Positions 27,110 to 64,000 of a DNA stretch of 64,000 nucleotides are shown piece by piece. The stretch lies in contig BTVJ01000042.1 in NCBI GenBank assembly GCA_045863395.1, positions 1 to 64,000 of the forward strand. Direction: 5' to 3'. This DNA is from Myxococcales bacterium. Its GTDB lineage: Bacteria > Myxococcota_A > UBA9042 > JABWCM01 > BTVJ01. Position numbers and translations under genes: made by a program. The notes beneath the pieces are model-generated. The model was not told the DNA's origin. It saw only the letters and a program-made list of their open reading frames with translations, and made no database searches. Every line of letters starts with the position of its first letter. Position 1 is the first letter of the stretch.

Positions 27110-30100
27110 TCAGTTGGACAGACACCCGAAGTAGGACTTCTGGCACGCGCCGGTCGCGGCCTTCTCGTAGCAGGCCGGGTCCCCGTTGGGTCCGCACGCG
27201 GCGAGCAGGCAGTCGCTCAGCTCGATGTACATGGACTGCGCCTCGGGGGTGCTGTCGTAGAAGCACTGGTAGGCGCAGTCATCCGTCGGACAGTCGCTCA
27301 TGCACACCAGCATGGCGTAGCAGCCCATCGGCGGCTTGCCGGAGCAGGTGCCAGCGCTGGAGCAGGACTGCCCGGCCGGGCACGTACCGCAGGAGCCCCC
27401 GCAGCCGTTGGGGCCGCAGGTCTTGCCGGCGCACTGGGGAGTGCAGGTGCCGCCCTTGCACAGCGCGACCTGCTGCGCGCAGGGGCCGGCCATGGCCTGG
27501 GCGGCGCAGTCCGAGGTGATCCCGAACCCGCAGTACTGGGCGACGCAGCCCACCACCGCCTGGAACTGGGACTGGGCCTGCTGGGTGCCCGTCTGGCCGC
27601 ACTTGGTCAGACAGGCCGTGTCGCTGGGGGCGCAGGACGACAGGGCGCACTCGAGGACCTGGGAGCAGCTCGCGGTGCCCGTCACGGCGATGCACTTGCC
27701 CTGGGTGCACTGCTGGAGCGGTCCGCACTGGCCGCAGGAGCCCCCGCAGCCGTCGCCGCCGCACTGCTTGCCGGCGCAGCTCGGGATGCAGCTCCCGATG
27801 CAAGCGCCGTCGAGGCACTTTTCGGAAGGCGCGCACTGCTGGATGGGGAGCCACTGGCCTCCGATGCACCACGCGACCGCGTTGTTCGCGCAGCCGATCT
27901 CGCCATCGGCGCACTGGCCGACGGGCGCGCACTTGCCGCTCTGGCATTGGGTCCCTGGCGGACAGGTCTCCACCTTCATCCAGTTGCCGTTGACGCACAG
28001 GAGGATCGTCGAGCCCTCGCAGATCTGGGCGCCCTCGACGCAGTTGGGCGTGGCGATGCACTGGCCGCCGGAGCACGCCGTCCCTGGCTGGCACGTGCCG
28101 CAGGAGCCGCCGCAGCCGTCGCCTCCGCACACCTTGTTGCCGCACTGGGGCACGCAGCCCTGCTGGGTCTGGCAGACCTTCGCGATGTCGGCGCACGGGC
28201 CCTGCATGGCCGTCAGGGAGCAGGGGGCCTGCGGGTGGATGGGGGTGCCCTGCCCGCACACGCTGCCCACGCACTCGAGGAGCTTGGAGTAGAGTCCTTG
28301 CGCCTCCTGGCCGCCCAGGGACACGCACTTCTGGACGCACGCCTTGTCGTTGAGCCCGCACCCGGCCCCGCAGGTCACGATGTCGCTACAGGTGCCGGTC
28401 GAGATCTGCGTGCACTGGCCCGCGCTGCACGTCAGCCCGTCGGGGCAGGTGCCGCAGGAGCCGCCGCAGCCGTTGCTGCCGCACTGCTTGCCGGCGCAGC
28501 TCGGCACACAGCCTCCCTGACACTTGCCGGCGACGCAGGGGGTGTCAGCGGGGCACTGCTGGACGGGGGTCCAGGCTCCGCTGGCGCTGCACCCGAGCAC
28601 CGTGTTGCCCTGGCAGATGGTCTGGCCCGGCGTGCACTGGGTGGTCGGGATGCACTGGCCGTTGCTGCAGCTCGTGCCCTGCTTGCACTCTCCGCAGATG
28701 CCGCCACAGCCGTCGGCGCCGCACTGTTTGCCGGCGCAGCTCGGGACGCAGCCCCCCATGCACGCGTCGAACTGCTTGGCGCACTGGTTGGTGATGACCT
28801 GCTGGAAGCACATGGGGTTCGTGGCGTCGCACCAGTTGAGCACGCAGCTCACGAGCACGTTGAAGGACTGCGCCGCCGCGTCCGTGGCGCCCTCCTGGCA
28901 CATCATGATGCACTCGAGGGACCCCGACGAGCAGGCGAAGGCGCACTCGACGATGTCCGCGCAGCTCTTGCCCGCGCCGACGCACTGGCCATTCTGGCAC
29001 ATCGTGTTCGCCGGGCACTTCTGGATCGGCACCCAGGTGCCGTCCGCCCCGCAGGCGAGCACCGTGGATCCGTCGCAGATCGACTGGCCGGGGATGCACC
29101 CGGGCTGGACGCAGAGGCCATTCGAGCACGCGGCGCCCTGTGGGCACGTCCCGCACGACCCGCCGCAGCCGTCGCCACCGCACTGTTTGCCGGCGCACTT
29201 GGGAGTGCAGCCGCCCTGGCAGGCGCCGTCCTTGCAGCTCTGACCCGACGGACAGGGCTTCGGGGCGCTCCAGGCGCCCTGTACGCAGGTCGACACGCCG
29301 CCGTTCGTGCACTGCGTCGCGCCAGGCTGGCAGCCGCCCTGGCAGACGCCGTCCTTGCAGCTCTGGCCGGTCGGACAAGGCTTCGGGGCGCTCCAGGTGC
29401 CTTGGATGCACTGGGAGACCCCGCCCCCCACGCACTGCGTCGCGCCAGTCTGGCAGCCGCCCTGGCAGGCGCCCTGGACGCAGGTGCCGTTGGGTCCGCA
29501 AGACCCGCAGGAGCCGCCGCAGCCGTCCGGGCCGCACTGCTTGCCGTCGCAGAACGGTGTGCAGGTGCCCACGCAGCCCTCGTAGGGGACGGCGCAAGTG
29601 TCGGCGAGGGCCTTCTGGACGCACTCGGGCTCCAGGCCGTTGCACACCTGCTGGAGGCAGCTCACCAGCTTGATGAAGGCGTTCTGCGCGTTGGGGGAGC
29701 CGCCCTCGGCACAGCTCTTGGCGCAGCCCGGCTCGGTCTGGGGGCAGTTGAGGGCGCACAGCAGCAGGTCCTCGCAGGACGCGAAGCCGGGTGGCTTGCA
29801 GGTGCCGTCGTTGCAGAAGGAGCCCTCGAGGCACTCGCCGCAGGAGCCGCCGCAGCCGTCCTCGCCGCACTCCTTGCCGTTGCACGACGGCGCGCAGGTG
29901 GCCTCGCAGGCGGCCGCGAGCTCGCCGCAGGGGCCGTGGGGCTGGGTGACTGCGTGCTCGCACCCGGGGGCGGAGTCGCCGGAGCAGGCGTCGGCGATGC
30001 ACTCCACGAGGGCTTGCGCCGCGTCGGCCACGACCTCGGTGGCGGGCTTCAGGCAGGCGTCGATGCAGTTCGTGTCGCCGTAGCAGCCGAGCAGGCACGC

Positions 30101-30595
30101 GACCGCGTCGGTGCAGGAGACGGAGCCGCAGGCTCCGCAGTCCGCCGGGCAGCTCGTGCAGGACTCGTCGCTCGCGCAGGCGCCGTCGCCGCAGGGGAGG
30201 GGGCCGCCCGGGTCGACGCAGACGCCGTCCTTGCAGGTCCAGCCTTCGAAGCACGATCCGCACGAGCCGCCGCAGCCGTCGGCGCCGCACTGCTTGCCGG
30301 CGCAGCTCGGGGTGCAGCCCTCCTTCTTGCACTGGCCGTCCACGCACTTGCCCTCGGCGCACCCGCCGCAGGAGCCGCCGCAGCCGTCGCCGCCGCAGGC
30401 CTTGCCGGCGCAGTCGGGAACGCACGAGGCGTCGGGTTGGCCGGGGGTGACCCCGTCGACCGGGTCGATGCCGGTCACGTCGCCGACGGCGTCGCCGGAG
30501 CTGCCCTCCTCGGATGGCGGGGAGTCGGGACAGCCGGAGAGCAGCAGGGCGAGGAGTGACGCCAGCGCGACGGCTGAGGACAGACGGGTTCTCAT
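27110..30595 (-). CDS. Giant cysteine-rich lipoprotein with repeated CxGKxCGxDGCGGSCGxC modules
   Basis: Lipobox LLLSGC; about 10 GCGGSCG modules alternating with helical Cys modules; ~123-bp direct repeat near 29211-29460. Confidence 0.85.
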   Translation of the reverse strand: MRTRLSSAVALASLLALLLSGCPDSPPSEEGSSGDAVGDVTGIDPVDGVTPGQPDASCVPDCAGKACGGDGCGGSCGGCAEGKCVDGQCKKEGCTPSCAGKQCGADGCGGSCGSCFEGWTCKDGVCVDPGGPLPCGDGACASDESCTSCPADCGACGSVSCTDAVACLLGCYGDTNCIDACLKPATEVVADAAQALVECIADACSGDSAPGCEHAVTQPHGPCGELAAACEATCAPSCNGKECGEDGCGGSCGECLEGSFCNDGTCKPPGFASCEDLLLCALNCPQTEPGCAKSCAEGGSPNAQNAFIKLVSCLQQVCNGLEPECVQKALADTCAVPYEGCVGTCTPFCDGKQCGPDGCGGSCGSCGPNGTCVQGACQGGCQTGATQCVGGGVSQCIQGTWSAPKPCPTGQSCKDGVCQGGCQPGATQCTNGGVSTCVQGAWSAPKPCPSGQSCKDGACQGGCTPKCAGKQCGGDGCGGSCGTCPQGAACSNGLCVQPGCIPGQSICDGSTVLACGADGTWVPIQKCPANTMCQNGQCVGAGKSCADIVECAFACSSGSLECIMMCQEGATDAAAQSFNVLVSCVLNWCDATNPMCFQQVITNQCAKQFDACMGGCVPSCAGKQCGADGCGGICGECKQGTSCSNGQCIPTTQCTPGQTICQGNTVLGCSASGAWTPVQQCPADTPCVAGKCQGGCVPSCAGKQCGSNGCGGSCGTCPDGLTCSAGQCTQISTGTCSDIVTCGAGCGLNDKACVQKCVSLGGQEAQGLYSKLLECVGSVCGQGTPIHPQAPCSLTAMQGPCADIAKVCQTQQGCVPQCGNKVCGGDGCGGSCGTCQPGTACSGGQCIATPNCVEGAQICEGSTILLCVNGNWMKVETCPPGTQCQSGKCAPVGQCADGEIGCANNAVAWCIGGQWLPIQQCAPSEKCLDGACIGSCIPSCAGKQCGGDGCGGSCGQCGPLQQCTQGKCIAVTGTASCSQVLECALSSCAPSDTACLTKCGQTGTQQAQSQFQAVVGCVAQYCGFGITSDCAAQAMAGPCAQQVALCKGGTCTPQCAGKTCGPNGCGGSCGTCPAGQSCSSAGTCSGKPPMGCYAMLVCMSDCPTDDCAYQCFYDSTPEAQSMYIELSDCLLAACGPNGDPACYEKAATGACQKSYFGCLSN

Positions 30596-30814
30596 GGGGT
30601 GCCTCTCGGTGCCGCCCGGGGGCGGTCTCTGTGGGAGCGCTCGACGGTCGGGGAGAATACCACAACCGCTGGGGCCATGGTATGGGGGCAGCGGACATGA
30701 GCAGGCGCGTCCTGCGGGGCGCCGCGGGGGTCGGCCGCCGCACGGCGGTGGCGCCTGGGGGGCGCCAGTGGAAGCGCGCAGGTGGCGGTGCTACGGTGGC
30801 CGCCGGAGGCACGG

Positions 30815-31777
30815 ATGCGCGAGGTCACGGAGCAGACGCGGGAGCGGTGGGCGCAGGACTTCGCGGAGCGAGCCGCCGCGTGGTGGACGCCGGAGCGGAC
30901 GCGCGCCCAGCTCGGCACGAAGCGCCTCGTCTTGCCGCCGGCCACGTCGGGGCCGCTGTTGCGGGCCCTCGGGCTCCTGAACCGGGACGCGAGCATGCCG
31001 CCCGACCGGGTGCGCAAGTACCTCCAGATCAGCCATATGATCGCGCTCCTCGAGCCGGTCTTCGTCGACCTGGCTCGCCACCCGGTGGTGCGCGTGCTGG
31101 ACGCGGGCTGTGGGGCCTCGTACCTGACCCTGCTGCTCGGCTGGTGCTTCGCGCATCGCTGGCGTCATCCGGCGCAGATCGTCGGTGTGGACCGCAACCC
31201 GGAGGTCATCGAGCGGTGCCGCCGCAGCGCCAGCATGGCGCTCCTGGACGGCGTGGTCCGCTTCGAGGTCGGGTCGCTGGAGGGCCTCGAAGTCCCGAGC
31301 ATCTGGGAACGCGCGTTCGGTGACGCGACTGGCGGTCTCCACGCCCTGGTGGCGCTCCACGCCTGCGACACGGCCAGCGATGACGCTCTCGCGCTGGGCG
31401 TCGCCGAGGGGGCGGACTTCATCGGCGTCGCTCCGTGCTGCCAGGCGGAGCTCGCCCGGCGCTGGGCGGAGCTCTCCGAGAGGGGGATGCCGGGGCCCCT
31501 CGCGCCTCTCTGGGCGTCGTCCCACCTGCGCAGGGAGGCAGGGGCAACCCTGACCAACGCGCTGCGCGCCCTGCTGCTGCGGGCACGCGGCTACGACGTC
31601 ACCGCCATGGAGTTCGTACCTACGGCCCACACCCCCAAGAACACCCTGCTGCGGGCGGTCCTGGGAGGGACGGGCGGCCTCGAGGAATACCTGGCGCTGC
31701 GGGACGCCCTCGGCGGGGTCTCGCTGCACCTGGAGCGCGCCCTCAGAGCCCGTCATTGCTACGTGCCCGGCCTGTAG
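30815..31777 (+). CDS. SAM-dependent methyltransferase (Methyltransf_32-like)
   Basis: VLDAGCGASYL, GVDRN, ALHACDTASD, APCCQ and HTPKN; ggagg RBS before ATG 30815. Confidence 0.85.
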   Translation: MREVTEQTRERWAQDFAERAAAWWTPERTRAQLGTKRLVLPPATSGPLLRALGLLNRDASMPPDRVRKYLQISHMIALLEPVFVDLARHPVVRVLDAGCGASYLTLLLGWCFAHRWRHPAQIVGVDRNPEVIERCRRSASMALLDGVVRFEVGSLEGLEVPSIWERAFGDATGGLHALVALHACDTASDDALALGVAEGADFIGVAPCCQAELARRWAELSERGMPGPLAPLWASSHLRREAGATLTNALRALLLRARGYDVTAMEFVPTAHTPKNTLLRAVLGGTGGLEEYLALRDALGGVSLHLERALRARHCYVPGL

Positions 31778-31940
31778 CTGGCGCCCCGTCGCGGCCCCCC
31801 GCGCCGATTTGCCCTGGCACAATTTGCGAATTCCACCTACCATGCCGATGCACCCCAAGGTCGCTACACGAGGTTCATACGCTCCCGCGGCGCGCTCTGC
31901 GTCTCGGGGGGGGATCTCCACCAGGTAGGAGGCTCATTTC

Positions 31941-34900
31941 ATGGAGAGGCGATGGAGACGTGTTCGGTCGAGCCTTGGGGCGTCGGCCCCTCTCGTGCTG
32001 GCCGTTCTGGTCACGATGGTACCCAGCGTGTCCGCGGCCCAGCAGGGCTCCTGCTCCGCGGGAGTCAAGATCTCAGACGACTGTGCCGGCGCCACCTGGG
32101 AGGGGTGCTGCTCCCCGGAGGGGCTGACCTTCTGCGAGCAGGACGGCAGCGCGCTCTGCTTCCTCGACTGCGCAGGGGGGACCTGCGGCTGGAGCCCCGC
32201 GGCCGCCTTCTATGTCTGCGGCGCGCTGGGCCCCGACCCAAGCGGGCAGCACCCATACGAGTGCGCCACCTGCGATCCCCCCTGCGGGGCCGGCTTCGGC
32301 TGCGCGGGAACGACCTGCGTCGCGTGCGGCTGCGGCGACAAGGACTGCGGTGCTGACGCCTGCGGCCAGCCATGCGGCACGTGTGCCTCGGGAGATGGAT
32401 GCACGCCCGAGGGGACGTGCGTGACCCTGCCCGGTGGGTGCGCGAAGAGTCCGACGAAGGGCTGTGGGGGGTGCGCGTGTGAGTCCTGCGTCTGCGCCAT
32501 GGACTCGTTCTGCTGCGCGACGGCCTGGGACGGCATCTGCGTAAATGAGTGCAGCGTCGACTGCGGCGCGAGCTGTCCGCAGGTGTGCATACCGACCTGC
32601 AACGGCGCCACCTGCGGCTCGGACGGATGCGGCGGGACGTGCGGATCCTGCGAGGCCGACGAGCACTGTGCCCCGGGGCCGCTCGGAGCGCCCAGCGCAT
32701 GTGCTCCATGCACCTGCGACGGCAAGCAGTGCGGCGAGGACGGCTGCGGCAACTCCTGCGGGACCTGCGGGGAGGGCGAGACGTGCATCGCGGCAGGCCA
32801 GTGCGTCACCTCGGGCTGCACCGGGAGCTGCGGTGGACAGGGAACCGGCGGCTGCTGGTGCGACGCCTCCTGCTTCAGCGTCGGCGACTGCTGCGACGAC
32901 GTCTGCGACCAGTGCGGCGACATGTACTGGTTCGACTGCGGCGGTGAGTGCCCCGCGAGCTGCGACGGCAAGGAGTGCGGCGACGACGGCTGCGGGGGTT
33001 CTTGCGGAGAGTGCTCCGAGGGGAGCCAGTGCGGGGGCAGCGCGTGTATCGTGTGCGGCTGCGGTGACCGCGAGTGCGGCGCAGATGGCTGCGGCAATCC
33101 CTGCGGAACCTGTACGGGCGGCCAGGGTTGCACGGCGGCCGGGCAGTGCGAGGACCCGGTCCTGACACCGGGGTGCACGACGAACCCGACCAAGGGTTGT
33201 GGCGGCTGCGGGTGCGAGTCCTGCGTCTGCGCCCAGGACCCGTACTGCTGCGCCACGGCCTGGGACGGCCTCTGCGTGGCGCAGTGCGGCGACGACTGCG
33301 GCGGGGGGTGCGTCTCTCTGTGCATCCCGAGCTGCGGCAGCGCGACCTGCGGCCCCGACGGCTGCGGCGGGACGTGCGGCGTCTGCGGGCCGGGGACTTG
33401 GTGCAAGCCCGGCGACCCGTTTGACGGCTCGAACGCGAGCTGCGCCCCGTGCACGTGCAACGGCAAGCAGTGCGGCGACGACGGCTGCGGCAACTCCTGC
33501 GGCACGTGCGCGGACGGCAAGACGTGCAGCCCGGATGCTCAGTGCGTCGAGTCGGGCTGCGCGGGTCTGTGCGGCTCGCAGGGCATCGGAGGCTGCTGGT
33601 GCGACTCCGCGTGCTTCGGCTGGGGCGACTGCTGCTCGGACGTGTGCGACCAGTGTGGCGGACAGTTCTGGAGCGACTGCAAGCTCCCGTGCCCGGCGAG
33701 CTGCGAGGGCAAGGAGTGCGGCGGTGACGGCTGCGGCGGCTCCTGCGGTGACTGCGGCGCCGGTTTGTTCTGCTCAACCCAGGGCGTCTGCGTCGACGTC
33801 TCCCAGGCGACCTGCCAGGGTCTCTGCGGCAGCTACAGCCCCGATCAGCTCTGCCAGTGCGACGGGGCCTGCTTCACCTACGGAGACTGCTGCGAGGACG
33901 TGTGTACGGCCTGCGAAGCGAACTACCCGACCCAGTGTGGCCCATGCGTCCCGAGCTGCGCGGGCAAGACCTGCGGCTCCGACGGGTGCGGTGGCTCGTG
34001 CGGGTCGTGTGGCGAGGGCGGCATCTGCGGCGGAGACGGCAAGTGCTTTGCGGGCCTGGCTGGGACGTGCGCCGGAATCTGTGGCACATACGACGGGGCG
34101 GCGGCCTGCCAGTGCGACGGCGCTTGCTTCGACTACGGTGACTGCTGCCAGGACGTGTGCGTTGCCTGCCAGATGGACTACGCCGCACAGTGCGGCCCGG
34201 CCTGCGCTCCGAGCTGTGCCGGAAAGTCGTGCGGCGACGACGGGTGCGGGGGCTCCTGCGGCTCCTGCGCCGCCGGCGAGACCTGCACGGCCGGGGTGTG
34301 CGCCAAGCCCTGCGTGCCGAAGTGCGGCACCGCGACGTGCGGCGACGACGGGTGCGGCGGTTCCTGCGGGACCTGCGCCGCTGGCGAGACCTGCACGGCC
34401 GGCGCCTGCGTCGCGGAGTGCGCACCAGATTGCGCCGGGAAGGAGTGTGGCGCAGATGGGTGCGGCGGCTCCTGCGGAGACTGCGGTGCCGGCGAGACCT
34501 GCACGGCCGGCACCTGCACTGCGGACTGCACTCCGGACTGCGCCGGCTTGGAGTGTGGCGACGACGGCTGCGGCGGCTCCTGCGGATCGTGCAGTGCGGG
34601 CGAAACGTGCGACGCGGGCCAGTGCACGGGCGGCTGCGCCCCGAGCTGCGGTGGCAAGGAGTGCGGCGACGACGGGTGCGGCGGCTCCTGCGGAGACTGC
34701 GGCGCCGGGGAGACCTGCACCGCGGGGCAGTGCACGGGCGGCTGCGCCCCGAGCTGCGGTGGCAAGGAGTGCGGGGACGACGGGTGCGGTGGCTCCTGCG
34801 GTGACTGCGGCAAGGGGGAGACGTGCGACGCGGGCCAGTGTACGGGAGCCTGCGCTCCGGACTGTGGTGGCAAGGAGTGCGGCGACGACGGGTGCGGCGG

Positions 34901-35195
34901 CTCCTGCGGCGACTGCGCCGGCGGCACCTGCCAGGCCGGACAGTGCGTCGCCGCACCGGGCGGAGACACGGGCCCGGGCGTCGCCGACAGCGGCTCGGGC
35001 AGCGCCGACGTTCAGGGCGCCGACAGCGGCCCTGCGGGCGAGGAGGACACCGGGTCTGCGACTCCCCCATCGGACGACGACGATGACGGCTGCTCCACGG
35101 GCGGAGACAGGGCGCCGGCCGCGTGGCTGCTCCTCGCGCTGCTCCTGGCTGTGACGCGGCAGCGCCGTCAGTTTGGTGTCTCACGCCCGCGCTGA
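31941..35195 (+). CDS. Giant cysteine-rich surface protein with somatomedin-B-like modules and MYXO-CTERM-type sorting signal
   Basis: Signal peptide; about 16 CxxxxCGxDGCGxxCGxC modules; four CxCDxxCxxxGDCCxD modules; C-terminal GCSTGG, hydrophobic helix and RQRR. Confidence 0.85.
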   Translation: MERRWRRVRSSLGASAPLVLAVLVTMVPSVSAAQQGSCSAGVKISDDCAGATWEGCCSPEGLTFCEQDGSALCFLDCAGGTCGWSPAAAFYVCGALGPDPSGQHPYECATCDPPCGAGFGCAGTTCVACGCGDKDCGADACGQPCGTCASGDGCTPEGTCVTLPGGCAKSPTKGCGGCACESCVCAMDSFCCATAWDGICVNECSVDCGASCPQVCIPTCNGATCGSDGCGGTCGSCEADEHCAPGPLGAPSACAPCTCDGKQCGEDGCGNSCGTCGEGETCIAAGQCVTSGCTGSCGGQGTGGCWCDASCFSVGDCCDDVCDQCGDMYWFDCGGECPASCDGKECGDDGCGGSCGECSEGSQCGGSACIVCGCGDRECGADGCGNPCGTCTGGQGCTAAGQCEDPVLTPGCTTNPTKGCGGCGCESCVCAQDPYCCATAWDGLCVAQCGDDCGGGCVSLCIPSCGSATCGPDGCGGTCGVCGPGTWCKPGDPFDGSNASCAPCTCNGKQCGDDGCGNSCGTCADGKTCSPDAQCVESGCAGLCGSQGIGGCWCDSACFGWGDCCSDVCDQCGGQFWSDCKLPCPASCEGKECGGDGCGGSCGDCGAGLFCSTQGVCVDVSQATCQGLCGSYSPDQLCQCDGACFTYGDCCEDVCTACEANYPTQCGPCVPSCAGKTCGSDGCGGSCGSCGEGGICGGDGKCFAGLAGTCAGICGTYDGAAACQCDGACFDYGDCCQDVCVACQMDYAAQCGPACAPSCAGKSCGDDGCGGSCGSCAAGETCTAGVCAKPCVPKCGTATCGDDGCGGSCGTCAAGETCTAGACVAECAPDCAGKECGADGCGGSCGDCGAGETCTAGTCTADCTPDCAGLECGDDGCGGSCGSCSAGETCDAGQCTGGCAPSCGGKECGDDGCGGSCGDCGAGETCTAGQCTGGCAPSCGGKECGDDGCGGSCGDCGKGETCDAGQCTGACAPDCGGKECGDDGCGGSCGDCAGGTCQAGQCVAAPGGDTGPGVADSGSGSADVQGADSGPAGEEDTGSATPPSDDDDDGCSTGGDRAPAAWLLLALLLAVTRQRRQFGVSRPR
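34203..34950. repeat. 108-bp (36-aa) tandem repeat, about 7 copies
   Basis: ggcgacgacgggtgcgg recurs at 34233, 34341 and onward; units such as CAPSCGGKECGDDGCGGSCGDCGAGETCTAGQCTGG. Confidence 0.85.
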
Positions 35196-56383: not shown

Positions 56384-56617
56384 GGCGTGCCGTGAGTCGA
56401 CGTCCTCCATTGTCGTGCACCCGCGCTTCTGGTCTGAAGGCTCGGTGGCAGAGTCGAGGGTCAGCGGAGGCGGGCAAGGCGCCGTAGTCTGGACGCTCTC
56501 AAAGTTGCTGGTTGACACCGGCAGGGTGTTCACCGACTGTCCCCGGGCAGCCCCTTGGACGCTGACCCAGGTCGCGGGACGCTGTGGCTCGATTCGCCTG
56601 ATGGGAGGTGCGTGGGA

Positions 56618-58843
56618 ATGGGCGACTTCCACAACCCCTACAACTTCGTCCCTGCTCCCCCTCGCGAGGGGCCTGGATATTCGCCCGACCATCTCGGCGA
56701 CTCCGCCCCGGCTCCACACGGGTGGCTGGGGTCGGACCTCTGGACGGGGCGCATTCGCGTATCCATGGAGGTTGTATCGCCGTTGCTCCTTCTGGATACT
56801 TCCAGGGTCACGGAGCGCGACGGCCACAAGACCTTCGACGTGCTGGTCGGCGGCGATCACAAGCCCCGGGTCCCGGAGACCACCATCAAGGGTATGCTCC
56901 GGGCGGCGTTCGAGGCGGTGACCAACTCCCGCTTCGGGGTATTCTCCAAGACACACGCGAGACGCCTCGGGCTCCGCATGGAGGCGAAGGAGGGGCTCCG
57001 GCTCGTCCCGGCGCGGGTCGTGGGGGACGAGCTCGTGCTGATGCGAGGGGCGTCCCACGTCAACCCGACGCAGCGGCCGGACGGGCAATGGGAGATTCCC
57101 GCCGGCAGAGGGGGCGCTTGGCCCCCCGGACTCCTGCACGCGGCGTGGATGCCTGGCGAGAAGGTAGGTTACGGCATGCTGCACAACCCGATGCCCCCGG
57201 AGCCCCGGCATGGAACGCATGTCTGGGCCTACGTCCGGTGTCGTGATCAGGGTAGGTGCAGGATCTGGCTGGTCGACGACTGGGTGCCGTATGTCGGTGG
57301 CCGCCCGAAGCGGGTGCCCGAACCCGTCTCACGATACCTTGACGTCAGGAATCCTCCCCAGCCTCACGGGCAGTGGGTGGAGGGCTGGCTCTGCATTACC
57401 GAGAAGAACGTGAGGAACAAGCACTATGAGCGTCTGTTCTTCACCACCGAGGCACAGCCGCCGCGCTACTCCATTACGCCAGCTATCGAGGCGTTGTGGG
57501 GAGATGTCATTACGAACTACCGGCAACAGCACGACGAGGACAGCGTCTGGTGGCGCAAGCGACCCAACGCTACGACCCAATACGCCCACCCTGAGGACGT
57601 CCTCGGGGACGAGCCGGGCAAGACCGCCTGGTCACGGCACATCTTCCGGGACGGGAAGCCCCGGCGCCAGCCTGGGGGGGTACGCCAGCCCGACGACCTC
57701 GACCTGCGAGCTGCGCAGCTCGTCTATGTGGCGCTGGACCCCAAGGACACGATCATCGGGATCTACCCCGTGATGATCGCACGGAAGCTCTACGCGCTCC
57801 CCCCAGACGCGCTGCTCCCGAAGTCGCTCCAGCCCGCGACCGCACCGTCAGATCTGTCGCCCGCCGACCGCGTCTTCGGGTGGGTCCACCCAGGCGGGCA
57901 CGGAGCCCACCGCGGGCAGCTCCGGGTGCGTCGGGTGGAGTGCGTGACTGAGGCCTCCAGGGCCATCCGGCGCTTCAGTGATGCCGGTCTTCCGCTGGCG
58001 ATCCTGGGGCGGCCGAAGCCCCAGCAGGGGCGCTTCTACGTGGCCGCCGATGAGAGCGGGAAAGCGCAGGCGCAGAGGCTGGATCGGACTCAGGCTGGAT
58101 ACTCGCAGAAGAAGGGCCTCCGTGGCCGAAAGGTCTACCCGCACCAGCGCGTTCCCAGTGGGCACTGGGACGACGCGGACCAGGAGCGGGGCACTCAGAG
58201 CTTGAGCGGGTGGTTCCAGGAGTACCGTCGCCGGGGAGGTACAAGGGATACCCAGAACCGCTCCGTGACGGCGTGGGTCCAGCCAGACACCTGCTTCACG
58301 TTCGACCTGGACGTGGTCAACCTGAGCCGCGTGGAGCTGGGCGCCCTCTTGTGGCTCCTCGACCCGGCGAGCTGTCTCCACCACAAGCTCGGTGGCGGGA
58401 AGCCCCTGGGATTCGGGTCCGTCAGGCTGTCGTGGGACCGCAAGGCGTCCGACCTGCGCACGGGGATCGGCTGGCAGCGGACCTACGAGAGCCTCTGGGA
58501 GACGCCGCCCGACTCGATGGATGCCACCAGTGACGCCGAGGAGTGTATCAAGGACTTTCGAACTGCCGTCGAGGCGACCAGCACGGGGACGCGGTTCGAG
58601 CATGTCCCGTTCATCGCCGCGTTCAAGAAGGCGGCCGCGGGCCACCAGGGTCGTCCCACCCATTACCCGAGAGTCGGCGCTTGCGGGCAACGGGGGCAGG
58701 CCTACCCGGCTACCGTCAAGGGCGAGGCCTTCAAGTGGTTCGTCGCCAACGACAGGGGTGGACGACACGCGCTCTCCGATCTTGGGACGGACCAGGGGCT
58801 CCCGCGTCTGTACGAGGACCCGCCGAGGCACAACGGAGGGTGA
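56618..58843 (+). CDS. cas7: Type III-D CRISPR RAMP, Cas7 with large insertion (TIGR03986-like)
   Basis: FHNPYNFVP, PETTIKGMLRAAFEAVTNSRF, LSPADRVFGWV, LAILGRPKP, LRGRKVYPH, ELGALLWLL and HKLGGGKPLGFGSV; ggaggt RBS. Confidence 0.88.
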   Translation: MGDFHNPYNFVPAPPREGPGYSPDHLGDSAPAPHGWLGSDLWTGRIRVSMEVVSPLLLLDTSRVTERDGHKTFDVLVGGDHKPRVPETTIKGMLRAAFEAVTNSRFGVFSKTHARRLGLRMEAKEGLRLVPARVVGDELVLMRGASHVNPTQRPDGQWEIPAGRGGAWPPGLLHAAWMPGEKVGYGMLHNPMPPEPRHGTHVWAYVRCRDQGRCRIWLVDDWVPYVGGRPKRVPEPVSRYLDVRNPPQPHGQWVEGWLCITEKNVRNKHYERLFFTTEAQPPRYSITPAIEALWGDVITNYRQQHDEDSVWWRKRPNATTQYAHPEDVLGDEPGKTAWSRHIFRDGKPRRQPGGVRQPDDLDLRAAQLVYVALDPKDTIIGIYPVMIARKLYALPPDALLPKSLQPATAPSDLSPADRVFGWVHPGGHGAHRGQLRVRRVECVTEASRAIRRFSDAGLPLAILGRPKPQQGRFYVAADESGKAQAQRLDRTQAGYSQKKGLRGRKVYPHQRVPSGHWDDADQERGTQSLSGWFQEYRRRGGTRDTQNRSVTAWVQPDTCFTFDLDVVNLSRVELGALLWLLDPASCLHHKLGGGKPLGFGSVRLSWDRKASDLRTGIGWQRTYESLWETPPDSMDATSDAEECIKDFRTAVEATSTGTRFEHVPFIAAFKKAAAGHQGRPTHYPRVGACGQRGQAYPATVKGEAFKWFVANDRGGRHALSDLGTDQGLPRLYEDPPRHNGG

Positions 58844-58939: not shown

Positions 58940-59260
58940 ATGCCGGCACCGATATTGACCATCACCGAGCAGAAGAGCGGAGTGCGAGTCCTCCGCATCA
59001 GCATCCCGGGGGATATCACCACGCCCGGCGAGTTCGCGGCCGCGGTCGAGTCCGTCGCGGAGTCTCTCCCGGGCAGCTCACCCGTCTTCCTCAATGGGAA
59101 GGGGCCCGTCTGGGGCTTCGCGATGCTCCTGCACGAGGCGCACGCGACCCCCGCGGTCGCGGTCTTCGACCCGCGGTTCAACGGGTACGTGGTGGTCGCC
59201 ACCCACGACGTGGGGTATGTCGTGGGACAGGTGATCCCCGCCGCCGATGTCCATGATTGA
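58940..59260 (+). CDS. csx3: CRISPR ring nuclease Csx3 (Crn3)
   Basis: 106 aa; LNGKGPVW...LLHEAH...VFDPR...VVVATH matches the Csx3 pattern, including the His and DPR residues. Confidence 0.88.
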   Translation: MPAPILTITEQKSGVRVLRISIPGDITTPGEFAAAVESVAESLPGSSPVFLNGKGPVWGFAMLLHEAHATPAVAVFDPRFNGYVVVATHDVGYVVGQVIPAADVHD

Positions 59261-59273
59261 GGAGCGCTGAACG

Positions 59274-59885
59274 ATGGCTCCGTCTCGAGACCGCCAGGGT
59301 GCGGTCATCAGCATCGGGGGACCTCCTCATTCGGGGAAGTCCGTCTTCGCTCATGCGTTGAACAAGGCTCTCGCATCCAAGATGGGCGACGAGGTGTTCC
59401 TGGAGAGGTGCAACCCGGACGGGGAGGGGAACTGGGCCTACGAGTCGCCGCCCGAGCTCGTGCAAGCGATCCGAGTCAAGAACCCGTTTTCGGATGACTT
59501 TGTGCGAGCCAAGCTCGCCGGTATCGCCGGCCTGCGACAGTCGAAGCGTGTTGTCTTGCTGGACCTGGGCGGGAAGATCGCTCCCGATATTCACCAGTTC
59601 CTGAGCGCATCGACCCACGCTCTCCTCGTGAGCGGTGACGACGGCGCGCTCGAGAAGTGGAAGGCAGCCGTCGCGAGCGCCAATGGGTGTCAGCTCCTTG
59701 GAGCGCTGCGTTCGACGCTCGTCCGCACGACGGACGGGACCCTCGATGCCGCGGCGCGGTCGACGGTGTGCCTCATCGGACCGGCGTGGACAGGGGGCCT
59801 CGTCAACCTGGACCGAGAGGGGCCCAACGAACCGTACAGCGCCGCCGTCAGCGCCATTGCGGAGCACATCGCGGTGATTGCCTGA
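59274..59885 (+). CDS. Stand-alone P-loop NTPase (Csx3-associated type)
   Basis: GGPPHSGKS Walker A, CNPDGEGNW and VLLDLGG; own gagga RBS, between csx3 and cas10. Confidence 0.75.
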   Translation: MAPSRDRQGAVISIGGPPHSGKSVFAHALNKALASKMGDEVFLERCNPDGEGNWAYESPPELVQAIRVKNPFSDDFVRAKLAGIAGLRQSKRVVLLDLGGKIAPDIHQFLSASTHALLVSGDDGALEKWKAAVASANGCQLLGALRSTLVRTTDGTLDAAARSTVCLIGPAWTGGLVNLDREGPNEPYSAAVSAIAEHIAVIA

Positions 59886-59923: not shown

Positions 59924-61648
59924 TTGCACGTCCTGCTCCTCGAGACATCCGGCAACCAGGCGTACATCTTCGGAACGAACCGCCTCCGCGAGAACGTCGG
60001 CGCCTCGCAGCTCACCTACGTCGCCGGCACCACCTGGGTCGAGGACGGGCTCAAGAGCGTGCTCGGGAGCGTACCGATCCATGGGATCGAGGCCCAGACG
60101 GGGGACCGGGGGGCGGAGGTGGTCGTCTCGACGTCTGGCAAGGCCGTCGTCCTCTTCGACCAGGAGGAGGACGCCCGCGCCGTCATCACGGCCGTCACGC
60201 GGAGGGCCCTGCACGAGGCGCCGGGCCTGGACATCGCGGGGACGGTCAGCGGTGCGTTCGACTGGAGCGAGGCAGGGGCACTCCACGGGGCCCTCGCGGA
60301 GGTCCACCGGACCTTCGAGCAGGTCAAGGCGGAGGTGCCGTCTCCCCTCACGCGCTTCCAGCGCCTCCCGCTGATCGCTGACTGCTCATCCAGCGGACGC
60401 CCTGCCGCGCACGTCATCGGCCCATGGATCAACGATGAGCCGGACGAGGACGACCGCCAGCCGTTCTCCGCGGAGAGCTTCGCGAAGCGCCTCGCCGCGG
60501 GGGATGGCTATGCGAGGCTCCGGCAGGCGGTCGAGGCGGCGGCAGGCGTGCGGCTGCCCCGGAACCTGCGCGACCTCGAGCGGGCCCTCGAGGGTCGCAC
60601 CACGACCGGCGACAGCGAGCTGCGCGTGATCGACTGGCTCGGCGTCGTCCACGTCGACGGCAATGGCCTCGGTCAGGTCTTCCTGGGGCTCGACGGCTAC
60701 GCGCACAAGGACAACCGGACCTATGCGGACACCCTGGGTGGACTCTCTCGCAGGCTCGACGACGCCTGCCGCCGCGCCTTCCAGGAGGCCGCGGCGGCCA
60801 TGTGGGATCGCACCCGGGTCAGGAGACGCCGAAAGGATGGGACCGACGAGCCGCTCGCGTTGATCCCGCTCGTGCTCGGCGGCGATGACATGACGGCCCT
60901 CTGTGATGGGGCGGAGGCCATCCGGTTTGCGAGAGACTACATCGAGGCGTTCGAGAGGCTCGCCCGGGAGGAGGTCTCAGGGCTGCCCTGGCGGGACACT
61001 CCCCCCGGAATCACGGCCGCGGGAGGCGTCGCGATCATCAAGCCCCACTTTCCCTTCTCCGTTGGCTACGAGCTGAGCGAGTCGCTGGTCCGATCCGCCA
61101 AGTCGGTCAAGCGGCTGGGTGAAGGGCCCGGCGCGCCGGTCTCTTCGCTGGACTTCCACGTCGTCTACGACGCGTCCGTCGCGGGGCTCGACGCGATTCG
61201 TGAGCGCCTCACCCTGGTCGAGGGAGGCGCACGTTACTGCCTGTACCACCGCCCGTACCTGCTCGGAGCGGCCCGCGAGGCGGTCTCGAAGGCCCATGGC
61301 CTTCCGCGGCTCGATGGTCTGGAGAGGCGCATCGCTGCCACCGTGGCTGTGGACCCGGAAGGTAGGAGGCGCTACCCCTCGACTCAGCTCCATGGCCTCC
61401 GTGCCGCACTCTTCCAGGGGGCGGCCGATGCCGAGGCTGCGCTCCGGCTGATCGTCCATCGGTACCCCGGGCTCGACAGCCATGTGGGCTGGAGCGTCGA
61501 CGGGATGCCGGCTCCCGCGGGTGCAACGATCTTTGACGCACCGGCGGGGAAGGACAGCGAACGCCACACGTTGCTGCTCGACGTCATGGAGCACCTGGCG
61601 TTTCTGGCGCCGCTCGATGCGCCGGCCGAGGAAGGAGGTGCCCAATGA
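59924..61648 (+). CDS. cas10: Cas10, type III-D-like, compact and lacking the HD domain
   Basis: ETSGNQAYIFGTNRLRENVGAS, VHVDGNGLG, LVLGGDD and KPHFPF; TTG start after ggagg. Confidence 0.9.
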   Translation: MHVLLLETSGNQAYIFGTNRLRENVGASQLTYVAGTTWVEDGLKSVLGSVPIHGIEAQTGDRGAEVVVSTSGKAVVLFDQEEDARAVITAVTRRALHEAPGLDIAGTVSGAFDWSEAGALHGALAEVHRTFEQVKAEVPSPLTRFQRLPLIADCSSSGRPAAHVIGPWINDEPDEDDRQPFSAESFAKRLAAGDGYARLRQAVEAAAGVRLPRNLRDLERALEGRTTTGDSELRVIDWLGVVHVDGNGLGQVFLGLDGYAHKDNRTYADTLGGLSRRLDDACRRAFQEAAAAMWDRTRVRRRRKDGTDEPLALIPLVLGGDDMTALCDGAEAIRFARDYIEAFERLAREEVSGLPWRDTPPGITAAGGVAIIKPHFPFSVGYELSESLVRSAKSVKRLGEGPGAPVSSLDFHVVYDASVAGLDAIRERLTLVEGGARYCLYHRPYLLGAAREAVSKAHGLPRLDGLERRIAATVAVDPEGRRRYPSTQLHGLRAALFQGAADAEAALRLIVHRYPGLDSHVGWSVDGMPAPAGATIFDAPAGKDSERHTLLLDVMEHLAFLAPLDAPAEEGGAQ

Positions 61649-64000
61649 AGGCGCTCGATTTTCGGCTGACGTTCTCGACCGAGTGGGGCATCGGCACCGG
61701 GGGGGGGCGCCACGGCGAGGTGGACCGGACCATCCGGCGCGACGCCGCGGGGCTGCCCTTCGTTCCGGGGAAGTCGCTCCTCGCGGCGCTCCGCGACGCG
61801 GCAGAGCGCCTTGCCTGGGGCCTCGACGGCGGCAGGCGGGGGCCCTGGCACGGCTGGCTCGACCTGATCTTCGGGACCCAGCCGGGGCGCACGGATGCCG
61901 GTGCGCCCGTCGTCTACGGGGCCCCTGTCCCGGCCAGGCTCATCGTAGGCGATGCGCGCATCGAGGGGGCGCGGGAGCTGGACGGTGGCGCGCCCCCGGG
62001 AGGCGAGCGACCGGGATGGACCACCCTGAAGCCGGGCGTCGCGCTCGACCCGAAGACCGGGACCGCCCGGGACCGCACGCTGCGAGTCGAGGAGGTTGCA
62101 CGTCGCGGGGTGACGCTGACGGCGAGTGGAGCGTGGCTCGATGGGCTAGACGGCGAGAGCCTCCTCGTCGCCACCGCATTCCTGGCGGCAGCGTGTGGGC
62201 TCGTGGAGCGCATTGGAGGCAGGCGCCGCCGGGGTCACGGGCGCTGCAAGGTCACCCTGGAGGGCGTGGCGCCGGACCAGATTCGCGACGTCCTCTCGGC
62301 GAAGAGCGCACCTGCGGTGCCACCACCACCGACGCCGGATCTGTCTCGACCTGTCCTCGGACCCATCGAGTCCGCGCCTCTACCCGACCGCCACGGTGGA
62401 CGCGAGAAGACAGACCAACCGGTAGTGGCGTGGAGTCGCCAGCAGTTCACGCTGAGGGCGCTCACGCCGCTGATCATCCCCCGCGCTGTCTTGGGCAACG
62501 TCGTGACCTCCGAGGACCGGATCCCGGGCACCTACCTGCTTGGGTGGCTGGGTCGAGCGCTGTCGGCGGCAGGGTGGAGTGAACGTCTCGCCGAGGAGAT
62601 CGCTGCGGAGCGGATCGTGGTGACTCACGCCACGCCCGAGGTCGCGGGGACCCGTGGTCTCTCAGCTCCCATGGCATGGTTCAAGCCCAAGGAGGGCACG
62701 GGACTCCCCGTGGAGGGCCAGATCTGGGTGGGCTGCGACGTGGTGAACCGGCTCGTCGCTGATGCTCCCGGAAATCAGCTCAAGGGCTACCGGCGCGGCT
62801 GGGTTTCGGACGCGGCCCCTGGGCAGTGGCCTTGGTACCGGGACCTCGCCGATGAGCTCATCCAGACGACCCACAACACCATCGACGACCGCGTTCAGCG
62901 CCCGACCCAGGATGTTGGCGGTGTGTATTCCTACGGAGCCATACCGGCTGGGACGGTCTTCCGATTCGAGGTCCGCTGGGCGGGGGACCTCCCCGGGGCG
63001 TGGTGGGCGCAGTGCCCGGGCTCCATACGGCTGGGCCGCGCGAAGAGGGGCGAGTATGGCCAGGCATCCGTCGGGGTGCTTCCAACGGGTGGCACGGAGC
63101 CTCCACACGTTCCAGTCGTCGGGCCCAAGGATTCGGTTCTGACGGTGTGGCTCCTCTCAGAGGTCCTGCTTCGGGGACCGGGACTGCGACCGGTCTCCGC
63201 TGCCGAGACCCTCCGCTCCGAGATCGAGCAGTCGCTGAAGAAGATCTCGGAGACCATTCGTCTGGAGCCCGACGAGCGCGAGGGCCAGCTCCACTCCCTG
63301 CTTCGTCCTGCCCGCGTCGACTCGTGGAGCGCGAGGTGGCAGCTCCCCCGGCCCTCGCTCGTGGGGCTCGCGGCGGGGGGAGTGGTCCGGTACCGCGTCG
63401 TGGGAGTGCCAGAAGGCAACCAGGAGGCGTTCAACGACTGTCTCGCGGGCATCGAGGCGGCGGGCGTCGGTGAGCGCCGTGCCGAGGGCTACGGCCAGGT
63501 CCGGTTCAACGACATACGTCTCGACGCCCGGGAGCTGGAAGCTCCGGCCAGCTCCCGCAATCCGGCAGATCCAGGAGCTCCGACCGGCTCCGACTCCCCC
63601 GACTCCGAGCGCCGGACACACGCCCTGGAGCCGCCTCCGGTCGCCATGCTGGAGGCACGGATTGCGGCGGCGGTCGCGCGGGGGATGCGCGATGAGGCAT
63701 GGCCGATGCTCGGAGGGGGGGACCGCAGTACCTGGCCCAGCGCAAGTCAGCTCGGAGGTCTCCGCTCGGCGATCACGCGGCTGGAGCGAGTCGGCACCTA
63801 TGAGGGCAACCCGCTCACAGCCTGGTTGGATGCCTTAGAGAAGACCCACCGCTGGCGGGACCTCTGGCCGGAGACGGTCTTGGAGAGGCTGAGGTCTCTC
63901 GCAAGGGTGCCGGCGGAGGTAGAGAACCTGCTGGCGAGCCCGGAGTTGACCGAGGAGACTGCGGCCATGACCCTGCGCGCGTTCATCGGTGGGCTGTTGC
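61645..64000 (+). CDS. csx10: Cas7-Cas5(Csx10)-Cas11 fusion, 3'-truncated by window edge; absent from ORF track
   Basis: Hand translation from ATG 61645 (ATGA overlap with cas10) is open to 64000. Cas7: WGIGTG, LPFVPGKSL, IFG, GVALDPKTGTA, IGGRRRRGHG. Cas5/Csx10: IPGTYLLG, THNTIDD, LGRAKRGEYG, GVGERRAEGYG. Small-subunit-like helical tail: PSASQLGGLR. Confidence 0.85.
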   Translation, partial: MKALDFRLTFSTEWGIGTGGGRHGEVDRTIRRDAAGLPFVPGKSLLAALRDAAERLAWGLDGGRRGPWHGWLDLIFGTQPGRTDAGAPVVYGAPVPARLIVGDARIEGARELDGGAPPGGERPGWTTLKPGVALDPKTGTARDRTLRVEEVARRGVTLTASGAWLDGLDGESLLVATAFLAAACGLVERIGGRRRRGHGRCKVTLEGVAPDQIRDVLSAKSAPAVPPPPTPDLSRPVLGPIESAPLPDRHGGREKTDQPVVAWSRQQFTLRALTPLIIPRAVLGNVVTSEDRIPGTYLLGWLGRALSAAGWSERLAEEIAAERIVVTHATPEVAGTRGLSAPMAWFKPKEGTGLPVEGQIWVGCDVVNRLVADAPGNQLKGYRRGWVSDAAPGQWPWYRDLADELIQTTHNTIDDRVQRPTQDVGGVYSYGAIPAGTVFRFEVRWAGDLPGAWWAQCPGSIRLGRAKRGEYGQASVGVLPTGGTEPPHVPVVGPKDSVLTVWLLSEVLLRGPGLRPVSAAETLRSEIEQSLKKISETIRLEPDEREGQLHSLLRPARVDSWSARWQLPRPSLVGLAAGGVVRYRVVGVPEGNQEAFNDCLAGIEAAGVGERRAEGYGQVRFNDIRLDARELEAPASSRNPADPGAPTGSDSPDSERRTHALEPPPVAMLEARIAAAVARGMRDEAWPMLGGGDRSTWPSASQLGGLRSAITRLERVGTYEGNPLTAWLDALEKTHRWRDLWPETVLERLRSLARVPAEVENLLASPELTEETAAMTLRAFIGGLL

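Follow-up and report, generated by a model that had tools for sequence, protein, structure and literature searches.

A two-gene Csx3-NTPase module in a type III-D CRISPR operon of a Myxococcales bacterium: a possible cA4-gated NTPase of predicted SIMIBI fold

What does a P-loop nucleoside triphosphatase (NTPase) do beside Csx3 (Crn3), a ring nuclease that degrades cyclic tetra-adenylate (cA4)? The question is raised by a stretch of 64,000 nucleotides from a Myxococcales bacterium (contig BTVJ01000042.1, here C42, positions 1 to 64,000; hereafter the window), in which csx3 and a gene for such an NTPase lie side by side within a type III cas operon. An earlier note on this DNA read the pair as a two-part switch. 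Here we examine what the pair is, to which class the NTPase belongs and in which direction control may run.

Fusions of the two domains in type III loci are known, as the note had said. Shah et al. (2018; PMC6546367) described fusions of Csx3 with an AAA ATPase in both possible orders (cluster 35, Csx3-AAA; cluster 67, AAA-Csx3/C3a67) and suggested allosteric control by cyclic oligoadenylate (cOA). Athukoralage et al. (2020; PMC7371418) used the name 'Csx3-prime' and the label 'kinase/transferase' for the partner domain, and in the available text of later papers the fused NTPase is of 'unknown function' or a 'kinase/transferase' (PMC7371418, PMC8284326, PMC9676260, PMC12409355). 'Crn3' does not appear in the available main text of the 2025 classification (PMC12669027). 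The portions of PMC6546367 and of the four papers above that were available to us give no established function for the NTPase, in agreement with the earlier note, and among the papers listed by a literature search none characterised the NTPase, its split form or its occurrence in Patescibacteria.

Csx3 and the NTPase of the window are encoded by two small separate genes, 13 nt apart and in different reading frames, each with its own ribosome-binding site (a Shine-Dalgarno-like AGGAGG ahead of the csx3 ATG; for the NTPase, see the table). The csx3 stop codon lies at 59258-59260. Contigs from two DNA runs (X2 and X3) and one RNA-library run (X7), which belong to three other studies, spanned the junction without indels, whereas X15 gave no junction coverage; the two differences in csx3 among the contigs of other runs (59035 and 59212) were both synonymous, as read off the sequence by eye. 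A single fused polypeptide of the cluster 35 type was therefore rejected. Further, the pair stands directly upstream of cas10, with 38 nt between the NTPase stop and the cas10 TTG. Both proteins matched the PADLOC profile PDLC01045 (Csx3-AAA; E = 2.5e-27 for the NTPase), and the pair has cas10 and RAMP genes on either side, so that the domains, their order and the type III context are those of cluster 35. The NTPase also matched PDLC01059 (AAA-Csx3/C3a67; E = 9e-28) and PDLC01515 (E = 4e-34), an NTPase-only profile of 183 positions that is filed as 'Csx3'. Unlike clusters 35 and 67 and 'Csx3-prime', however, the window has two genes and not one. The pair is a variant of a known yet uncharacterised Csx3-NTPase module, not a new system.

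The Csx3 of the window is likely an active ring nuclease, because its H65, H68, D77, R79 and H89 match H57, H60, D69, R71 and H80 of Archaeoglobus fulgidus Csx3, the full catalytic set. In the A. fulgidus protein, cA4 is held head to tail between Csx3 dimers and cut, in an Mn-dependent reaction, to the di-adenylate product A2-P; H57 and H60 form the metal face and D69 and R71 the binding face, and these residues and H80 matter for the reaction (PMC7371418). The window protein matched PF09620 (E = 6e-18; score 64.8 bits, cut-off 21), as does the A. fulgidus enzyme, scored slightly below the cut-off of TIGR02579 (54 against 55.4 bits) and matched the A. fulgidus structures by sequence (PDB 3WZI, 6YUD and 6VJG; E = 5e-8). 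The A. fulgidus enzyme was studied alone, whereas csx3 of the window is coupled to a partner gene.

The partner is predicted from its alignment and structure model to have a SIMIBI (MinD/ParA/BioD-like) fold, in contrast to the AAA+ label of the Shah and Athukoralage papers. The three motifs reported in the earlier note are all present (GPPHSGKS, residues 16-23; PDGEGNW, 48-54; LLDLGG, 95-100), and the residues conserved in the family are GPPHSGKS, PDGEGxW, R67-x-K69, D97-x-G-G, W129, S147 and R181. Two marks of SIMIBI NTPases are a DxxG switch II and a conserved Asp at the end of the first strand past the P-loop helix. Here D49, which is invariant (330/330), follows strand 41-45, and D97-L-G-G100 follows strand 93-97 of the model (D97 and G100 each 330/330; Leu after D97 in 107/107). 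The predicted overall fold agrees with this class, and its relatives there include the MinD/ParA/Mrp and BioD groups (PDB 8RAY, 1G3R, 8ZKC, 2G0T and 3FGN), at 9-18% identity. AAA+ ATPases possess a Walker B hhhhDE with a catalytic glutamate and a C-terminal alpha-helical lid subdomain. The AAA+ class was rejected for this NTPase, which has D97-x-G-G instead of hhhhDE and whose modelled C-terminal part consists of strands 164-166 and 172-177 and one helix (186-202), without a helical lid.

Membership in the MinD/ParA/Mrp group was also rejected, because position 17, where the deviant Walker A of that group (KGGxGKT; rows with GKGGxGKT were compared) has its signature lysine, is Pro in 324/330 sequences. 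Compared with MinD/ParA/Mrp and BioD ATPases, the NTPase is smaller (203 amino acids), and its GPPHSGKS, PDGEGxW, RxK and LxR motifs are specific to its family. NKxD, which confers guanine specificity, and ExxG are GTPase motifs of the SIMIBI and G3E groups. NKxD stands at the end of the strand after switch II +1. In the NTPase, strand 140-148, equated with that strand by the order of elements, closes with S147-x-L (Ser in 312/330) and not NKxD, and the SIMIBI GTPases (signal recognition particle, G3E proteins HypB/UreG/CobW and GPN-loop) were rejected accordingly. The DxxG that the earlier note took as GTPase G3-like is real, but as a general SIMIBI switch II it is no sign of a GTPase; the hint is weak because NKxD is lacking and the best fold matches are ATPases.

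The distribution of homologues supports Csx3 and the NTPase as one functional unit. A GTDB scan gave 310 relatives, of which the best 79 were analysed as loci; their contigs were often short, and the sequences counted are related and non-independent. The loci encode 80 NTPase domains in total, of which 22 are split, 15 have an N-terminal and 43 a C-terminal Csx3. Csx3 was fused or encoded just upstream in 76/79 loci (weakly in L029), the other three being contig starts, and the two genes overlapped by 4 nt in 6 of the 17 split pairs measured. Precomputed Csx3 domains were present in 11 of the 120 near-length homologues listed, mostly of about 200 amino acids, and in 11/15 of the longer ones listed. 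The split form as such was not supported as a pointer to a special mechanism, because an entire clade normally has it: in a tree, the window NTPase (nearest row, 47% identity) fell in a 27-row clade that contains all 22 split rows and four N-terminal fusions (support 91/98, below the star threshold of the tool).

The direction of control was approached through the residues of Csx3, in A. fulgidus numbering. Stand-alone Csx3 of split loci kept H57, H60, D/E69 and R71 in 18/18 cases (17 by script, L003 by eye). Among 70 N-terminal fused Csx3 domains, D/E69 was kept in 55, R71 in 52 and both histidines in 29; one or both metal histidines were thus missing in 41. The fusion on Synechocystis plasmid pSYSA (SGL_RS01000, L161:2647-3579; 26% identity to the window NTPase over 136 amino acids), which we infer from its place and size to be slr7080, has lost both histidines and retains the NTPase motifs, unlike the window, in which Csx3 has the full catalytic set. 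Its Csx3 domain has been described as a putative ring nuclease and is probably not one, because the histidines are absent and Lys replaces R71. An NTPase that is invariant on Csx3 without metal ligands would be expected of a sensor linked to an enzyme, not of a pure cA4-tuning job, and the pattern suggests that the catalytic part which stays constant is the NTPase, with Csx3 often a sensor alone. Thus, of the two branches offered in the earlier note, tuning of cOA lifetime fails to explain intact NTPases on Csx3 without catalytic histidines, whereas Csx3 as sensor fits, although it is not new (Shah et al., 2018; PMC6546367).

We tentatively propose, at somewhat below an even chance, that the pair is a split Csx3-NTPase module of type III loci in which cA4 activates the NTPase through Csx3 stacks with a built-in shut-off. 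The window Cas10 is predicted to synthesize cOA because its GGDD is intact. Its cA4 would stack Csx3 dimers and bring bound NTPase subunits together, whereupon the active site would be completed by the invariant R67-x-K69, which lies in the flexible insert 48-70 and would stand in for the signature lysine of MinD, and the ATP gamma-phosphate would be moved to water, a small nucleotide or an RNA end. Since Csx3 of the window has the full catalytic set, it would then cut cA4 and switch the NTPase off, giving a self-limiting output module that is also the ring nuclease of the cell. The Csx3-NTPase contact and the NTPase substrate in this scheme are putative.

In line with the switch of the earlier note, the NTPase might instead use ATP to dismantle product-bound Csx3 stacks or to load metal, and so set cA4 lifetime for Csx1 effectors encoded elsewhere. 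The genome holds one csx3 and one gene for this NTPase among four type III loci (C42, C2, C7 and C78), with Csx1 (CARF-HEPN) genes at C2 and C7, and Csx3 can, judging from its residues, act in trans as the ring nuclease of the cell whatever the NTPase does. We consider such a resetting role unlikely: the NTPase is intact where Csx3 lacks metal histidines (41/70 N-terminal domains; Synechocystis), it has neither NKxD nor a G3E-type ExxG, and the characterised archaeal Csx3 is active by itself in vitro (PMC7371418).

The NTPase is consistently accompanied by Csx3, but the pair often occurs away from CRISPR. cas10 or RAMP genes were present in the fetched stretch around 5/22 split, 7/15 N-terminally fused and 23/43 C-terminally fused NTPase domains (35/80 overall), and 13/22 split loci had no cas gene in that stretch. 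At the genome level (24 loci, namely the 22 split loci with L004 and L005 and excluding L021, in 23 genomes), Cas10 was present in 11 and its palm domain was not found in 12, which are drafts of unstated completeness; 10 of these 12 are 0.6-1.4 Mb, and several are labelled Patescibacteria. The co-occurrence proposed as a check in the earlier note therefore stood for csx3 and only in part for type III.

These counts speak for an alternative, an older module, namely a nucleotide or RNA-end conflict system of mobile islands that answers a non-Cas10 signal and is sometimes recruited to type III operons. Likewise, Cas10-less loci place the pair near serine recombinases, MoxR-vWA genes or a DEAD/DEAH helicase, strong matches are patchy in the phylum of the window (4/401 genomes, its own counted), and nucleotidyltransferase and NUDIX fusions exist. 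However, the window pair sits within a cas operon, 35/80 domains lie near cas10/RAMP genes despite the many short contigs, and within the 27-row clade the rows without CRISPR branch inside those linked to type III (weak internal support, no root test); small host-attached bacteria could, moreover, turn the pair against host cA4. We regard this origin as doubtful. Several CRISPR-less modules (L004, L006, L014 and L029) are followed, at a distance of a few genes, by MoxR AAA+ and vWA genes. Patescibacterial N-terminal fusions are preceded by a small unannotated open reading frame with a shared-looking motif (L004:6709-7527, L005:7063-7497 and L009:7249-7650), with no NCBIfam match in the two tested. 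One Csx3-NTPase fusion of a myxococcal type III locus has a TIR-SAVED effector and an extracytoplasmic function sigma factor as neighbours (L021:9288-10499).

Clues to the output came from extra domains and neighbours. Among 36 long relatives scanned, four NTPase-Csx3 proteins were fused to further domains (P0181, P0263, P0259 and P0208): a minimal nucleotidyltransferase in two, NUDIX in one and a Fic-like region below cut-off in one. A SpoT-like HD (HD_4) gene lies near the pair in 6/79 loci, all of the split clade. In cyanobacterial type III-D loci (L008, L010, L016 and L019), this small hydrolase is encoded between a WYL regulator and csx3, and its domain is fused to Csx3 in L019; the gene is also near the pair in two CRISPR-less loci (L006 and L009), and on pSYSA it (SGL_RS00990, L161:368-949) is two genes from the fusion. 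The hydrolase gene may thus far have been overlooked as an accessory gene of type III systems. Together, the fusions and HD neighbours suggest small-nucleotide or RNA-end chemistry, with no substrate named.

One such chemistry would be salvage, in which Csx3 opens cA4 to 5'-OH A2-P, the HD hydrolase strips off the phosphate at the 3' end and the NTPase adds one at the 5' end, as Clp1 does on RNA, for recycling. Clp1 RNA kinases have SIMIBI switch regions (PMC3273803), the fold matches include the SIMIBI enzymes BioD and CTP synthase, and 'kinase/transferase' is the name already given to the domain (PMC7371418); the HD genes, one of them fused, fit as well. The window locus has no HD gene, however, the six loci with an HD gene include four from related cyanobacteria, and histidine-less Csx3 fusions would yield no A2-P, so that we hold salvage to be very improbable. 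In two bacteria of the phylum of the window, a Clp1-like P-loop domain is joined to a domain that on visual inspection resembles an RNase Z-type metallo-beta-lactamase (L089:79-2121 and L090:1195-3369).

We place cA4-gated activation ahead of resetting and of a CRISPR-independent module, which we rate alike, and salvage last. Several points weigh against it. The last Csx3 domain of double fusions keeps D/E69 in 1/78 and R71 in 1/78; therefore ligand binding may not be universal. The conservation rows are related, and alignment of degenerate Csx3 domains is noisy. Csx3 is catalytically intact in the 12 genomes in which Cas10 was not found, and Cas10-made cA4 therefore cannot be the only trigger. 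With two Csx1 effectors at other loci and a single Csx3, no new effector is needed to give the latter an ordinary role. Further, deletion of slr7080 in Synechocystis left plasmid interference unchanged (PMC9676260), and a shared fold is no proof of function. A wider claim, which we think improbable, is that the NTPase represents a new class of cA4-gated effector (SIMIBI phosphoryl transfer, on with Csx3 stacking and off with ring cutting) and that the same module serves, in Cas10-less Patescibacteria and mobile islands, an undescribed oligonucleotide signalling with nucleotidyltransferases and SpoT-like hydrolases.

The features of the operon are as follows.

Features of the C42 operon, in window coordinates unless marked
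Feature	Position	Strand	Basis
cas7 with insertion (TIGR03986 RAMP), first gene of the operon	56618..58843	+	E 1e-83; start inferred from open reading frame 56555-58843
csx3/crn3 (106 amino acids), likely active	58940..59260	+	open reading frame, profile and structure matches, residue comparison
Shine-Dalgarno-like GAGGAG	59259..59264	+	sequence; overlaps csx3 stop, 9 nt ahead of NTPase ATG
P-loop NTPase (203 amino acids), predicted SIMIBI (MinD/ParA/BioD-like) fold	59274..59885	+	open reading frame, profiles, alignment, structure model
cas10 (574 amino acids), type III-D, no HD domain, GGDD intact	59924..61648	+	open reading frame, profiles
cas7-cas5-(cas11) fusion, Csx10-like	61645..64000 in window; end at 64071 on C42	+	profiles
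cas7-cas7-csx19 fusion (779 amino acids), last gene, beyond the window	C42 64075-66414		profiles

Type III-Dv complexes comprise an HD-less Cas10 with GGDD, fused Cas7/Cas5, Csx19 and a Cas7 with insertion. The C42 operon has these features (order: cas7-insertion, csx3, NTPase, cas10, cas7-cas5-(cas11), cas7-cas7-csx19) and is type III-D (Dv-like), heavily fused and with the cas7-insertion gene put first. A GGAGG precedes the TTG start of cas10. No CARF effector, cas6 or repeat array was recognised at the operon and no CRISPR array in the window, whose direct repeats (27355-34929 and 2-728) stem from long cysteine-rich repeat proteins. The genome also has a type I-G system, a cyclic-oligonucleotide-based antiphage signalling (CBASS) locus and four repeat arrays. 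Fusion genes of reverse transcriptase (RT) and PrimPol stand beside type III adaptation genes and arrays (L080:10025-15590 on C64; L081:7126-13272 on C78), and those on C64 have ubiquitin-like E2, JAB and E1 genes ahead of them.

From 2018 to 2025, papers have in their available text given the Crn3-fused ATPase as of 'unknown function' (PMC6546367, PMC8284326, PMC12409355). Its reassignment from AAA+ to the predicted SIMIBI class shifts the sensible experiments to a dimer switch or phosphoryl transfer and away from a hexameric unfoldase. The natural two-gene form with an intact Csx3 allows purification and mutation of one protein apart from the other, an approach that is closed to the Synechocystis fusion, with its histidine-less Csx3 and no knockout phenotype. 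If cA4-gated activation is true, an effector would be concealed behind a 'ring nuclease' gene, which would account for some type III loci without a recognised effector.
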